A DNA stretch of 61,768 nt from a virus (IMGVR_UViG_3300035665_000033:1-61768); one strand, 5' to 3'; positions 43,768 through 52,716 are shown, numbered from the stretch's first letter. Notes: generated by a model not told the origin, from the sequence alone. A program made the numbers and translations.

Positions 43768-43924
43768 CTTCTGCTCTTGATACTTTGACCAGCTTGACGT
43801 TTTTGCCTCTTGACACGGCGAGACTCCTGCTTGGGGTCAAGAACGTGTCACCGTCCCTGTCGTATGAGTACGTGAACTCTAGCTCGGTTCCAACTTGAAC
43901 TCCATGAAAATTGTAATCGTGCAT
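43757..43924 (-). CDS. Hypothetical protein (55 aa)
   Basis: ATG in ACGTC-ATG context downstream of the promoter box at 43955-43962. Confidence 0.5.
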   Translation of the reverse strand: MHDYNFHGVQVGTELEFTYSYDRDGDTFLTPSRSLAVSRGKNVKLVKVSRAEDGN

Positions 43925-43954
43925 GACGTTACGGGTTTGAGTTTTTAGATGCCG

Positions 43955-43962
43955 CAAAGATA
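43955..43962 (-). promoter_or_regulatory. -7 promoter box TATCTTTG
   Basis: Consensus match upstream of the recombination genes. Confidence 0.65.
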
Positions 43963-44081
43963 AGCCTCAGAAAGGTATGAGTCAAGTCCTTGGGCAACAT
44001 TATTATTCGTCAAAGTCACAGGATTCAGGTTTGCAAGAGTGCATTGACTCCAATGACGTCAGTAAGTTGTGCACGCAACAT

Positions 44082-44471
44082 TCAGCAGGAGGGACCGCTT
44101 TCTTGGTGCTGGAGCACGCCGCAAGGGTTAACGGCAAGATCAAAATTAACTTGTTCATTTCTGTTGCTTAAAAGGTTTCTGTTGACCACTTCGAGGGCCG
44201 TGATGTACATGACGTCATAGCCTCCCCAGTGCTTGTAGTTTCCATCGTGATTTCTACGGTGATGGATGACCGTTGCGTGATTTATGCCAAGCGTTCTTGC
44301 GACTTCGGAGATACTGAACCTTGTAGTCAAGGCTGCCAAGATAGCTGAGCGAGGCCTTACATGTTCCGCAAGCCTCGACTTCAGTGCCATCGCTTTTTGT
44401 TCTCGCGTCATCTCAAATCCCAAGATACACATGTAGCACTCGTCTACGAGATCCATTACTTCTTTACTCAT
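44082..44471 (-). CDS. Helix-turn-helix protein (DnaA C-terminal-like)
   Basis: SISEVARTLGINHATVIH resembles the DnaA domain IV DHTTV helix. Confidence 0.65.
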   Translation of the reverse strand: MSKEVMDLVDECYMCILGFEMTREQKAMALKSRLAEHVRPRSAILAALTTRFSISEVARTLGINHATVIHHRRNHDGNYKHWGGYDVMYITALEVVNRNLLSNRNEQVNFDLAVNPCGVLQHQESGPSC

Positions 44472-44704
44472 ACCATAAAGATAGGTGGTGAACTTGCGTT
44501 TGTTGTGTTTAGCTCGAAGGCATATACGTAGTAGTCGTAATGCTTCCCGAACTCTTCTTTGTGGTCTTTCGCCGCTTGGATAGCCGCGTCTCTGTCGTCA
44601 AAGACACCGACAGGAAAGGTGAAAATCTCTAATCGAGAATTTCTTGTTGCTGTGATCACATACATGTCTGTGTTATTTGGTAAAACCAAAGTTCTCAGCG
44701 TCAT
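44468..44704 (-). CDS. Hypothetical early protein
   Basis: 78 aa, ATGA overlap. Confidence 0.55.
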   Translation of the reverse strand: MTLRTLVLPNNTDMYVITATRNSRLEIFTFPVGVFDDRDAAIQAAKDHKEEFGKHYDYYVYAFELNTTNASSPPIFMV

Positions 44705-44855
44705 CCACTATGACACTCAGCTTGCTCAGGAGTATGTCAGAGTCCCCCTTGCGGAGGTACTCTGCATACGCCTCAAGCACTCGATCCAAGAGCTTGGTTT
44801 TGTCTACTAGTTCGTTCTGTCTTTGGATGTGGTTCATCTCTTGTGTGATGTTCAT
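44673..44855 (-). CDS. Hypothetical early protein
   Basis: 60 aa. Confidence 0.5.
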   Translation of the reverse strand: MNITQEMNHIQRQNELVDKTKLLDRVLEAYAEYLRKGDSDILLSKLSVIVDDAENFGFTK

Positions 44856-44868
44856 TGTGTCGGCTAAT

Positions 44869-45723
44869 TTAGATTACTGATTGAGATGCAAGCTTGAAGC
44901 CTACGTTGTCCATGTTGTTGTAGATGCCAGAGTACTTGTTGGCCTCACGGCTGTCTGCGTTCTTGCTTGACAGGTGTGTAGTGAACTTGGTGAGTCCGCT
45001 GAACATGCCCCAAGCAGTGTTGCCCTTCTGCGCCATCTCAGATCGGATCGCCTCTTTGAGGACCTCAGCCCGATTGAATCGCTTAGCGTTGGTGTTTTCC
45101 TTGGTGTCAACGGCGAAGTCAACCTTGAAGATGTTCTTGATGAACTCCTCTACATCTCGAGGCTTCACCAGCTTCTTCGACATGGCCATCATGGTCTCTG
45201 CGGTGCGCTCTGCCTCAAGTACAGACTCGTCGATCATGGGCATGTTCAAGCTGATCATGTTCAATACTTCGTCGATCGATCGGCGGGTATGACGTGCGCT
45301 GCTATTCATACTCTTGACGGCACGGTGGAATGTGTTTTGGCAGCTGATGGTGATGTTGGTGCTGCCCCAAGACAAGGCAGTCGTCCCGTCATGTGAGTTG
45401 AGACATGTGCTGTAGAAGTTTACTTTGTCTTTGTTGTCGCCGATCCCGTCGATGGACACTGGCGAGACAAGCTGCACGTAGGTCTTACGACCGCCTTGGA
45501 AGCATCCAGCTTTGTGAATCTCCATGTTGGCCATGCTTGAGATCGACTTCACAAGCTCCAGCATCTGATGATTCTGAAATTCTGCGTAGCCAGATTTTAC
45601 TGACGCAAACACGTCACGGTTGTCTTGACGCACTACAGCGAAGATGTCAGTTGGCGTGCCGTCTGCAAGGAAGAGCTGTTCTTTCTGAACCAGCCAGTTC
45701 AGGGTTTCGAATGAGTTGTTCAT
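44869..45723 (-). CDS. DUF932-family protein
   Basis: LNW.V...AG.F.GGR...NSHDGT...C.NT...NTAWGMFSG. Confidence 0.8.
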   Translation of the reverse strand: MNNSFETLNWLVQKEQLFLADGTPTDIFAVVRQDNRDVFASVKSGYAEFQNHQMLELVKSISSMANMEIHKAGCFQGGRKTYVQLVSPVSIDGIGDNKDKVNFYSTCLNSHDGTTALSWGSTNITISCQNTFHRAVKSMNSSARHTRRSIDEVLNMISLNMPMIDESVLEAERTAETMMAMSKKLVKPRDVEEFIKNIFKVDFAVDTKENTNAKRFNRAEVLKEAIRSEMAQKGNTAWGMFSGLTKFTTHLSSKNADSREANKYSGIYNNMDNVGFKLASQSVI

Positions 45724-45832
45724 GTTGTTCTGTGTTTAGAGTTCAGAGGTGAAGTTTGGGTGAAAGCCGAAGCGGCTTAGAAAAAGCTTTAAGTAAAGCG
45801 AGATAATCATTTGATTGACAGTTTGTTATTGG

Positions 45833-51146: not shown

Positions 51147-51287
51147 TTAGGCGTTATGGTCCATTACCATCATTTGCTCTCTTACAGAGAGCGTGTTGAA
51201 ATCGTCGCTGTTTACGACTGCATCGATACCGAAGGTATCTGCGAACTCGAGGATGATTCGCAACTTGTGTGACATGACGTTGTCCAT
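51147..51287 (-). CDS. Small early protein (46 aa, not in ORF track)
   Basis: MDNVMSHKLRIILEFADTFGIDAVVNSDDF...; directly after the promoter at 51314-51346; second ATG in ACGTC-ATG context. Confidence 0.55.
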   Translation of the reverse strand: MDNVMSHKLRIILEFADTFGIDAVVNSDDFNTLSVREQMMVMDHNA

Positions 51288-51313
51288 GAGTGTTGGGGTT
51301 TGATTGATGACCA

Positions 51314-51346
51314 CAAAGATACGGAACTGAATTCCACAATTCCAAA
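51314..51346 (-). promoter_or_regulatory. Early promoter TTTG-N21-TATCTTTG
   Basis: Full -33/-7 consensus. Confidence 0.85.
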
Positions 51347-51459
51347 TTTATTTTTTCAAGCGTAGCTTGGTTTCGTGACCCCGCTTGTACCGCATAGCAT
51401 GTGTGTGCAGGTCATGACGTGACGTCACGATAGCCCCCGCAAGGGGTCGACAGAATGCC

Positions 51460-52095
51460 TTAGAAAGGCATCCCGTCGAAGTCGCTGTCGAGGAGCATGT
51501 CAGCAAAGGCTTCAGCCTTAGCTGAACGCTTAGCAGCAGGCTTAGCCTTCGGCTTAGCCTCGAGAGCAGCAACCCTAGCCTCAAGTGAGGTGATGTCGTT
51601 ACGAACTTCGTTCGTAGCTTCAGCGTTGGCCGATGCAAGCTCTGTAAGAGCTTGAAGGGCGGTCTGCATCCGAAGCATAGCTTCGTTGGACTTAGCATTC
51701 ACCTTCGGTGAAGCGACTGCTGTCTCACGCTTGGCGTTACGCTCAGCAGCCTCGGCTTGTTGCTTTGCAACACGGTCAGCAGCCACAGCTTTGTCGGCTT
51801 TGGTCACAGCAAACCCCTTTGGGGTTGCTGCTGCAATCTCCTGTTTGTCAGCAATCTTCTCCGTAGGAGAAGGCTTGGTGGTCTTCACAGGCTTGGCCTG
51901 ACGCTTAGCAGCTTTAGCTGCTTGAGGCTTGGCCTTGGCAACCTTGTTCCCTTCGGGAACGTCGATGGCTGAGATGGACGATGCCAACTCCATAAGGAGT
52001 TGTAGGGCATGGTCCTTGCGCTCTGCGGTGGGACGGCAGGACAGGGCGTTGACAGTTGACCGAAGGTCAGAGAGGAGGGTGGTGTAGTTCAGCAT
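51460..52095 (-). CDS. First early gene: Ala/Lys-rich protein with acidic DFDGMPF tail
   Basis: Histone H1-like AK/PK tracts and coiled coil; ATG (MLNYTT) downstream of the promoter at 52141-52173. Confidence 0.7.
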   Translation of the reverse strand: MLNYTTLLSDLRSTVNALSCRPTAERKDHALQLLMELASSISAIDVPEGNKVAKAKPQAAKAAKRQAKPVKTTKPSPTEKIADKQEIAAATPKGFAVTKADKAVAADRVAKQQAEAAERNAKRETAVASPKVNAKSNEAMLRMQTALQALTELASANAEATNEVRNDITSLEARVAALEAKPKAKPAAKRSAKAEAFADMLLDSDFDGMPF

Positions 52096-52140
52096 AGCTG
52101 AGGTTGATTTGATTCGGCTCCAACAGCGAAACCGATGGCC

Positions 52141-52173
52141 CAAAGGTACTACGGCGAATCCCAGAATTCCAAA
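52141..52173 (-). promoter_or_regulatory. Early promoter TTTG-N21-TACCTTTG
   Basis: Full -33/-7 consensus. Confidence 0.8.
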
Positions 52174-52206
52174 CAAAATTCCGATTATTTTTTCCTGATA
52201 AAAAAG

Positions 52207-52230
52207 TTAATACCCCTTTAGGGGTATTAA
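52207..52230. repeat. Perfect inverted repeat TTAATACCCCT-TT-AGGGGTATTAA
   Basis: 11-bp arms read directly. Confidence 0.9.
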
Positions 52231-52716
52231 AAGACCCCATCAGATCGCGCAGGCGTAGCGCAAGCAGGTGCAGGCGATGTGTGTGCGCGTGACGTGACGT
52301 GATGCCCGCATGATGCAGCCGCGATGCCAGCGTGACGCCCGTGTGCACTCCCCCCTGACGTGAGGTCTGAGCAGGAAGGTTTAGGTGAGGTTTTGTTCCT
52401 TGCTGAAAACCAGCTGAATACAACGACTTTCTTGCAGTTCTGCTTCAACCAAAGGTGCTTAACTTCCTCAGATTCAGTCAAAAAGCTGAAAAGTATGATG
52501 AATTAAGCTGAAAGCTTAGGGGACGGGGTCTCGCGTTTGCGTTTCGGGTTGCGTTACGTGACGTCATGTATGTGGCGGAATCCCCAACCCCTGTATAACT
52601 CGGTAAAATTTACACTCGTATGGTGAACGAGGGCAAAAAACGTGGAATTTTACTCTCGTTAGGATCTGTGAATAAAAAGGCCCACACACCTACTTGACTT
52701 TTACCCAAAAAAGTTG

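Follow-up and report, generated by a model that had tools for sequence, protein, structure and literature searches.

Cluster K mycobacteriophages carry a 13-bp asymmetric repeat, GGGATAGGAGCCC, known as the start-associated sequence (SAS), in 11–19 copies (Pope et al. 2011, PMC3203893). In that paper, the copies are described as having one orientation and as being located in the non-structural half of the genome, 3–7 bp from the starts (mostly ATG) of genes of various families, and no function is given for them there. Two further systems act at the initiation regions of early phage messages. In phage T4, RegA represses ~30 mRNAs by binding unstructured sites that overlap the AUG or lie just 5′ of it (PMC3014915), and RegB is a nuclease that cuts GGAG in the initiation regions of early mRNAs (PMC1702504). 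Here, we describe ACGTC-ATG, a motif that abuts the start codons of small early genes transcribed from the minus strand of virus IMGVR_UViG_3300035665_000033. The entire record of this virus, graded complete, is the 61,768-base window that was analyzed.

By description, SAS is the best match to ACGTC-ATG, which is an element of the same kind and not a member of the SAS family. Both are short asymmetric repeats present in nearly one orientation (here, 24 sense and 6 antisense copies of ACGTCA), both are found within a few bases of starts that are nearly all ATG (here, 7 of the 10 copies of ACGTCATG open reading frames, at a distance of 0 nt), and neither extends beyond the non-structural part of the genome. 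Both are also found on genes of different families, are conserved across related phages and are absent from other phages. The differences are that SAS holds a Shine-Dalgarno core and is located 3–7 bp off the start, whereas the motif studied here has no such core and abuts the ATG; that the latter is made of 5-nt repeats, has another sequence and is also found in noncoding arrays; and that the host phylum of the present phage does without Shine-Dalgarno pairing.

The feature is strongly non-random. An earlier note on this DNA, made from the sequence alone, had put the number of plus-strand TGACGT sites (ACGTCA on the coding strand) at about two dozen in about 9 kb, with about 2 expected by chance. 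We counted 24 in 43795–52568; the excess is real, and the expected figure is slightly low, since a dinucleotide model gives 3.84. ACGTCA is the top over-represented hexamer on the coding (minus) strand of 43300–52700 (24 vs. 3.84, z = 10.3), and the top octamers there are ACGTCATG (10 vs. 0.22 expected) and TCACGTCA (10 vs. 0.29). In 300 dinucleotide-preserving shuffles, the mean and maximum were 3.82 and 11 for ACGTCA and 0.24 and 2 for ACGTCATG. The minus strand of 43795–52568 carries six TGACGT, four of which are the other strand of palindromic TGACGTCA. All ten coding-strand copies of ACGTCATG in the entire genome are found between 43924 and 51415, and the single copy on the opposite strand (52561) is a palindrome partner, so that the orientation is 10 to 1. 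When the genome was divided into 4400-base bins, 15 copies were found in 48401–52800, 7 in 44001–48400 and at most 5 in every other bin. No comparably over-represented word was detected in the late, replication and right-arm blocks, and in codon-shuffle tests the motif was at the codon-usage level on both strands outside 43.8–52.6 kb. The frequency is thus not uniform, the excess at starts persists after correction, and the enrichment stands.

The claim that the motif saturates the early region is overstated. ACGTCA is enriched there mainly as a start-codon element, with 16 of the 24 copies found outside genes, within ~1.4 kb; these and the start counts below depend on the gene models (n = 24 for the early block), which were built for this analysis. 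The other eight copies are within genes, where synonymous-codon shuffling yields 3.7 (P = 0.015), i.e., about half as many. In-gene copies occupy all three codon phases, as read from the coordinates. An amino-acid motif or a codon bias was rejected as the cause on the basis of the three phases and of the shuffling, which accounts for about half of the in-gene copies and for none of the junction copies. The proposed name of a phage-specific early-gene tag fits in so far as the motif is confined to the early minus-strand block, is at background elsewhere and belongs to a narrow clade; it marks only a subset of early starts (7 of 24).

The strand polarity is a property that the motif would share with a Chi-like or otherwise genome-polar DNA site, used in protecting first-injected DNA or in primase recognition, and the phage does encode a primase/helicase. 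T7 primase sites have the form NNGTC, as does ACGTC, and a palindrome of the related phage MW202828 (described below) starts with GTGTC on both strands. With codon usage kept, however, there is no clear same-strand excess outside the early block (TGACGT in late genes, 13 vs. 8.2, P = 0.05; in replication genes, 3 vs. 1.4), the motif is absent from relatives with homologous replication and recombination genes, and the fixed abutment to ATG is left unexplained. We therefore consider this explanation, whose Chi-like form is one of three mechanisms put forward in the earlier note, very improbable. The primase recognition site was rejected on the ground that it does not explain the abutment.

ACGTC was found directly in front of the ATG at 43924, 47042, 48846, 49150, 50800, 51135 and 51275, as had been observed earlier, and in each case an open reading frame (ORF) of 42–165 amino acids (aa) follows; the ACGTT variant before the ATG at 49465 opens an ORF as well. 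Positions −5 to −1 are occupied by ACGTC at 7 of 24 early starts (binomial P about 3e-13) and at 0 of 32 starts elsewhere (0/26 other plus-strand and 0/6 other minus-strand starts). The late starts, which the earlier note had contrasted as A-rich, are indeed A/T-rich. Out of ten copies of ACGTCATG, seven open ORFs, two are orphans (47062 and 51415) and one is out of frame inside a gene (44210). There is no alternative in-frame start upstream of the starts at 51135, 50800, 49150 and 47042, and the stop codon of the preceding gene is 11–12 nt before the ATG in four of the seven motif genes. The clusters reported at 47040–47068, 50798–50810, 51411–51428, 52290–52300 and 52553–52568 were all found. 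The sites are as follows.

43922..43929, minus strand: ACGTCATG, opens the 55-aa gene 43757..43924, the first gene after promoter-like box P4
47040..47047, minus strand: ACGTCATG, opens the 99-aa gene 46743..47042; kept at the orthologous start in the related contig L008
47060..47067, minus strand: orphan ACGTCATG, 20 nt upstream of the 47040..47047 copy, then cgccTAA
48844..48851, minus strand: ACGTCATG, opens the 69-aa DUF7417 gene 48637..48846; upstream TAA 11 nt before the ATG
49148..49155, minus strand: cacatcACGTCATG, opens the 99-aa gene 48851..49150; upstream TAA 12 nt before the ATG
49463..49470, minus strand: variant ACGTTATG, opens the 100-aa gene 49163..49465
50798..50810, minus strand: tandem ACGTCACGTCATG, opens the 165-aa gene 50303..50800; TAA 11 nt before the ATG
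51133..51140, minus strand: cacataACGTCATG, opens the 107-aa gene 50812..51135; TAA 11 nt before the ATG
51273..51280, minus strand: ACGTCATG at the 42-aa gene 51147..51275, the first gene after promoter P2; alternative in-frame ATG 12 nt upstream
51411..51428, minus strand: noncoding array gtGACGTCACGTCATGac between the 211-aa gene and P2; only a 19-codon ORF follows
52288..52300, minus strand: noncoding ACGTCACGTCACG, three ACG in 5-nt register, with ACG at the would-be ATG; ~120–150 nt upstream of promoter P1
52356..52361, minus strand: lone noncoding ACGTCA upstream of P1
52552..52568, minus strand: noncoding CATGACGTCACGTAACG, with the sole plus-strand ACGTCATG (52561); not conserved as such in the related genome G003
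44208..44218, minus strand: in-gene near-palindrome ATGACGTCATG within the 129-aa gene 44082..44471; ATG out of frame
43795, 45290, 46027, 48175, 48678, 49659 and 50418, minus strand: seven single in-gene ACGTCA
44054, minus strand: single ACGTCA outside the gene models, in a possible 51-aa ORF

The motif is part of a larger unit. Tandem ACGTCACGTCA accounts for five of the 24 hexamers, each as its second member, and a 5-nt period is evident from the excess of ACG..ACG (11 vs. 3.15 expected) and ACG..ATG (14 vs. 2.9) at this spacing; spacings of 1 and 4 show no excess, and a spacing of 3 shows a weak one (7 vs. 2.84). Triples in 5-nt register occur four times, with 0.36 expected. Across 27 distinct ORF-opening sites pooled from eight sources (the window phage and seven related loci; orthologous positions are included, and the sites are thus not phylogenetically independent), the pentamer before ACGTC (−10 to −6) reads A19 C21 R19 T22 C17. 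The complete unit is therefore ~13 nt long, ACRTC-ACGTC-ATG, i.e., two 5-nt repeats in phase with the start codon. The leader further upstream is G-poor at these 27 sites, and the unit usually ends a short C/A-rich, G-poor linker that begins at the stop codon of the preceding gene. Neighboring genes without the motif have ATGA overlaps or A-rich leaders after promoters.

Folding of ten sites gave a mean unpaired probability over the motif of 0.51–0.73 at eight of them, the exceptions being the ACGTT variant at 49465 (0.37) and the noncoding array at 51415 (0.15). No hairpin shared by the ten folds was found at the motif, apart from the array at 51415, and an Rfam scan of 43000–53500 at E ≤ 1 returned only a chance snoRNA match.

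Such leaders, G-poor and little structured, raise the question of an intrinsic signal: the host ribosome itself would read ACGTC-ATG with its CA-rich leader as an enhancer or re-initiation signal, independently of any phage factor. Where the motif occurs, a short spacer separates a gene from the preceding stop (the 11–12 nt mentioned above), and the motif-less neighbors rely on overlaps or on A-rich leaders, both of which agree with this proposal. The motif lacks a purine-rich Shine-Dalgarno core, fixes G at −3 and frequently has C at −6 within the unit. According to a study of Flavobacterium johnsoniae, A at −3, −6, −12 and −13 favors initiation in this bacterium, and an A-3G change lowers reporter expression by 70% (PMC6847099). 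Since G is present at −3 where F. johnsoniae favors A, the motif is not the host optimum, with the reservation that F. johnsoniae may differ from the host of the phage. In addition, the cultured Flavobacterium phage elemoE, of the same family, has plain A/T-rich starts, and the orphan and noncoding arrays are left unexplained. Overall, the intrinsic signal seems quite unlikely to us. As for pairing with 16S rRNA or initiator tRNA, neither is known to have an accessible complement to the motif.

Three proteins served as anchors in collecting related phages: Erf, the 211-aa protein that is the first of the early ones, and the 165-aa protein. The earlier note had asked about conservation in relatives, and the motif indeed recurs at the early starts of a narrow clade, consisting of G001–G005 and the metagenome contigs L097–L100, L102 and L103, in the sense orientation and within the early region. 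The complete 62-kb genome G003 carries six forward and one reverse ACGTCATG; L097 has six ACGTCATG in 1.5 kb, with ACGTCA at 11 vs. 0 on the opposite strand; L095 has 16 sense and 2 antisense ACGTCA; and L101 has 0 ACGTCATG. In ten other phage records that share Erf, there are 0–3 copies each, no more than in the reversed-pattern control, and no repeated word was found in elemoE. MW202828 lacks the motif and has none of the early proteins of the window in common. When GenBank phages were searched for near matches to the early region, none was found, and a literature search on the 8-mer, with supplements outside its reach, did not find a description of the motif.

Orthologues of 165 and 166 aa that are 33% identical in amino acid sequence both start at ACGTCATG. 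Unrelated genes of 114, 85, 67, 37 and 33 aa in relatives likewise start at the motif, and unrelated genes that open with it are present in G003, L097, L098, L102 and L050. The G003 homologue of the 100-aa gene 49163..49465, which opens with the variant in the window, starts at cacatcACGTCATG elsewhere in the early region. L097 has a longer array, CGTCACGTCACGTTACGTCATG, at the place of array 51411..51428, and L008 has unrelated letters at the eight positions of orphan 47060..47067. The motif is kept by selection, and the invariance of ACGTCATG while the spacer and the coding sequence diverge to 33% identity suggests that this selection is direct.

Other repeats are found at gene junctions of these phages. 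In L008 (G004), the region 400–2700 contains a junction repeat (ACAATAAAC, ACAATAAA) with eight copies on the coding strand and none on the other; ACAATAAAC holds the stop codon, a CA-repeat leader follows, and the repeat joins early genes whose window orthologues use the ACGTC junction. In the early region of MW202828.1 (43746–55168; L005/L006), the sequence TGTCGTTAACGACA, which forms the core of a 16-bp palindrome, occurs exactly 14 times without mismatch; 7 of the 14 start 5 nt after an annotated stop and 14–37 nt before the next ATG, and 5 of the 14 are in annotated genes. Genome-specific junction repeats seem common in the group, ACGTC-ATG being the only one that is tied to the start codon itself.

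The early region was found in 24 sequencing runs, nearly all of lake or other freshwater DNA. Four of the 24 runs were compared at the motif sites (one RNA run, as contigs, and three DNA runs); they yielded no usable ends, and no variation was listed there. The contigs of the RNA run span 13 of 30 bins of the region, which is no measure of the level of transcription.

Taken together, these data lead us to favor, tentatively and at somewhat less than even probability, the view that ACGTC-ATG is the core of a start-associated sequence that acts on early mRNA as an operator for post-transcriptional control. The operator would be overlaid on the initiation codon of the early message and would work at the level of mRNA instead of duplex DNA. 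The trans-acting factor reading it would most likely be a protein of the phage that binds single-stranded RNA or cuts it, and this factor would set or shut off translation for a subset of early genes, which amounts to control rather than to plain enhancement. A 5-nt direct repeat places successive sites on opposite faces of a duplex and is a usual spacing for proteins that read single strands. Because of this repeat and of the strict co-orientation, recognition would be of a single strand (mRNA), and because the motif overlaps the AUG, control of initiation is suggested. Among the three mechanisms proposed earlier, the mRNA cleavage or translation signal is the best fit to the sense orientation, the zero distance from the ATG and the 5-nt period, with an action on RNA that would follow from these features.

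Several observations weigh against this view. RegA (PF01818) and RegB (PF10715) have no six-frame match in the genome at E ≤ 1, and a Pfam search of 23 of the 24 early proteins returned no regulator above threshold and no candidate RNA-binding protein or nuclease. The noncoding arrays that precede P1 and P2 lack conservation in the G003 subclade, and they could be DNA operators. The twofold excess inside genes is not explained by a pure start-site role. Nor is the motif obligatory for a gene: the L008 orthologues of the 49150 and 48846 genes have another linker, ACAATAAAC...cacacaATG, without ACGTC, and the G003 orthologue of the motif-less 48634 gene starts at ACGTTATG. Finally, late genes contain 4 copies vs. 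5.35 expected, which shows no avoidance of the motif at expected counts too low for power, and such avoidance was dropped as a sign of a nuclease target. As for candidate factors, Pfam and PHROG scans gave no telling family, a protein atlas gave no function for the 165-aa and 211-aa proteins, and a homologue search with the 165-aa protein found only four close relatives.

The likeness to RegA and RegB lies in unstructured elements that overlap or adjoin the start codon in many early mRNAs and in a post-transcriptional shut-off, if the present motif does act on RNA. The differences are that RegA sites are A+U-rich and loosely conserved and that the GGAG of RegB doubles as a Shine-Dalgarno sequence; neither protein has a homologue here. 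A bolder version, which we regard as doubtful, is that the phage lineage has evolved its own start-codon operator of (ACRUC)n pentamers running in phase into the AUG, and that a phage protein either reads the 5-nt-spaced A-Y-G triplets on single-stranded RNA, in a TRAP-like or RegA-like manner, or cuts as RegB does. This would be a new early shut-off system without a known sequence relative.

The following promoters of the early block were identified.

52141..52173, minus strand: host-type promoter P1, TTTG-N21-TACCTTTG
51314..51346, minus strand: host-type promoter P2, aaaaaataaaTTTGGAATTGT...TATCTTTG
50261..50293, minus strand: host-type promoter P3, a near repeat of P2
43962, minus strand: fourth −7 box (promoter-like P4)

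P1–P3 are nearly identical promoters of the Bacteroidota type (aaaaaataaa, then TTTG, 19–21 nt and TAnnTTTG), and all are separate from the motif. Since host-type promoters are present, it follows that the early block is read by host RNA polymerase and that ACGTC is not its promoter. A promoter for a phage or virion RNA polymerase was likewise rejected: the host-type promoters are separate, and the 3250-aa protein of the phage lacks a D[FYW]DxD motif and was assigned to no Pfam or PHROG family. For comparison, no common motif was found upstream of the early transcripts of the crAss-like phage phi14:2, as reported in a preprint (10.1101/2020.03.07.982082).

The stoperators of Cluster A mycobacteriophages, which are temperate, are 13-bp sites for the phage immunity repressor that occur genome-wide, in early and late operons, at no fixed distance from the ATG. 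ACGTC-ATG resembles them in having many short asymmetric copies that are co-oriented with transcription and lie in short intergenic gaps. A phage protein might thus bind duplex ACGTCA(TG), regulate promoters from the arrays and block elongating host RNA polymerase at junctions in an orientation-dependent manner. The single orientation and the short gaps match the L5 stoperators, as these are recounted in PMC3203893. Single sites or tandem and near-palindromic arrays are found 65–150 nt upstream of boxes P1–P4 (52290–52300, 51411–51428, 50418 and 44054), and a DNA site would explain the in-gene excess more easily. The earlier note had proposed an operator array for a DNA-binding protein and had named three candidates. 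The arrays are present, but none of the three proteins has a family match above threshold: 44082..44471 has only a sub-threshold helix-turn-helix, and 51460..52095 and 56939..57358 have no match. The 44082..44471 protein does have homologues in four of four motif-bearing genomes and in none of two motif-free relatives. On the other hand, a stoperator gives no reason for the zero distance from the ATG in seven genes and ~20 sites in relatives, and a 5-bp direct-repeat period would be odd for duplex binding. Moreover, the sites are confined to one 9-kb block, with background levels outside 43.8–52.6 kb, and the upstream arrays are not conserved in G003. No repressor family was detected in 37 proteins scanned with Pfam, and neither a repressor nor an integrase was found among those ORFs that were scanned. 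We consider stoperator-like sites unlikely.

The nucleotide sequence of the early region is mosaic within the clade. Between the first small gene after P2 and the orthologue of the 165-aa gene, the window phage has one 107-aa gene, L097 has genes of 37, 33 and 107 aa, G003 has an unrelated 114-aa gene, and L102 has genes of 114 and 67 aa. Every gene of these variable cassettes starts at the motif, and the window phage has its homologue of the 114-aa gene at a different motif junction (49465). Motif junctions border three cassette differences; breakpoints are likewise found at gene boundaries that lack the motif. Orphan 47062 (ACGTCATG-cgcc-TAA) looks like a cassette emptied of its gene.

It could be, then, that the junction consisting of a stop, a CA-rich spacer and ACRTC-ACGTC-ATG is an exchange site for small early genes, used by Erf and the exonuclease, both of which are encoded beside the early block. 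Gene content that differs exactly between motif-bearing junctions, the 114-aa family at a different junction here and the orphan are in line with such a role, as are the other genome-specific junction repeats of relatives (L008 ACAATAAA, 8 vs. 0; the MW202828 palindrome, 14–16 bp). There is a precedent in the PeSLs (promoter plus stem-loop cassettes) of T4-type phages (Arbiol et al. 2010, PMC2839356). Here too, repeats lie between small non-essential early genes, and the differences among relatives by insertion, deletion or replacement may fall at them; PeSLs, however, consist of a strong promoter and a terminator stem-loop, and the ACGTC unit has neither. The 60–85-nt promoter repeats P1–P3 are a better counterpart of PeSLs. 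An identity of 8 to 19 nt is very short for homologous exchange, and cassettes bounded by start motifs are also expected under translational control, where each gene needs its own start signal. Furthermore, an invariant ACGTCATG amid divergence to 33% identity indicates direct selection and not only a benefit for evolvability. An exchange junction is thus an improbable primary role, at about the level of the stoperators; being compatible with the operator on early mRNA, it may be true in addition.

Further features were noted around the promoters. P1–P3 are 60–85-nt repeats that head early operons and are also present in G003. In run X5, one DNA contig connects 43962 with 51341, i.e., two promoter boxes, skipping 7378 bases; this join is weak, with 27 letters on the shorter side. 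A second repeated leader, CCCTT(T)TAATTCATTTyaAATG, is found on the minus strand at 49952, 43293 and 41800–41814, where it is followed by the genes for a signal-peptide protein (49938) and Erf (43279) and by a gene whose start is near 41786. This leader may serve middle genes as a distinct element, either start-associated or a promoter. Upstream of P1, a 400-nt noncoding leader (52205–52600, minus strand) contains four TTTCAGC repeats and ends in a hairpin and a T run (ttaatacccctaaaggggtattaa + ctttttt). In G003, the hairpin has other stem letters with pairing retained (cttactcccctaaaggggagtaag, by eye). The leader could be a small RNA or an origin. A trans-acting RNA from 52568–52210 was rejected as the reader of the motif: its CATGACGT (52568–52561) complements the motif but is not conserved in G003.

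The genome as a whole is organized in blocks.

1 to 35.4 kb, plus strand: structural and packaging genes (terminase, capsid-type structural protein, 3250-aa ORF)
within the 35.8 to 52.1 kb block, minus strand: ribonucleotide reductase, primase/helicase, exonuclease and Erf-like annealing protein genes
43.4 to 52.1 kb, minus strand: ~24 small early genes without assigned function, after the Erf/exonuclease set
from 52.8 kb on, plus strand: small genes, peptidase, ThyX and six tRNA genes

The closest named relatives by protein are podophages of Flavobacteriia, namely the uncultured MW202828.1, whose terminase is 49% identical, the elemo phages of Flavobacterium, and phages of Cellulophaga and Maribacter. 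The 3250-aa ORF (23980–33732, plus strand), which matches neither Pfam nor PHROG families and lacks a D[FYW]DxD motif, follows the tail genes and has a 3860-aa counterpart at the same position in MW202828; a 1512-aa protein beside it matches the C-terminal domain of the crAss muzzle protein below threshold (E = 0.003). ARAGORN called a tRNA with anticodon TCA (named tRNA-SeC) at 60048–60122 (plus strand), one of the six phage tRNAs, which could be of the suppressor type and read UGA.

Two observations concern the early block itself. The gene 47551–48084 (minus strand) has a Fib_succ_major domain (Pfam E = 1.7e-34), a domain of Fibrobacter and Bacteroidota surface proteins that is unusual among phage early genes, and diverged copies of this stretch are present in several runs. 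At 49490–49575 (minus strand), there is a tRNA-like cloverleaf with a 7-bp acceptor stem and a T arm loop UUCGAUU, in which a long hairpin replaces the D arm and the “anticodon” loop has 5 nt (minimum free energy −38.2 kcal/mol, z = −2.9); neither ARAGORN nor Rfam called it. A normal tRNA-Thr(tgt) is syntenic with it, after the signal-peptide gene, in G003, L098 and L099. Contigs of other organisms from two runs match the cloverleaf stretch alone, with loose ends at 49488 and 49570.

ACGTC-ATG provides a second, independent case of an SAS-type element, in a phage whose host belongs to an unrelated phylum; it lacks the Shine-Dalgarno core, which confounded the interpretation in mycobacteriophages. 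How early genes are timed and tuned in Bacteroidota phages is little known, and the motif, lineage-specific and strictly placed at the start codons of a third of the early genes, offers a clean handle on this; it also gives access to the initiation of internal cistrons where ribosomes do without Shine-Dalgarno pairing, and it can be used as bait for the factor that would read it. The junctions may also mark exchange points of small early genes, which would aid the annotation of uncultured phage genomes. For the small group of uncultured freshwater Bacteroidota phages that carry it, the most likely role of the motif is control of the translation of early messages.

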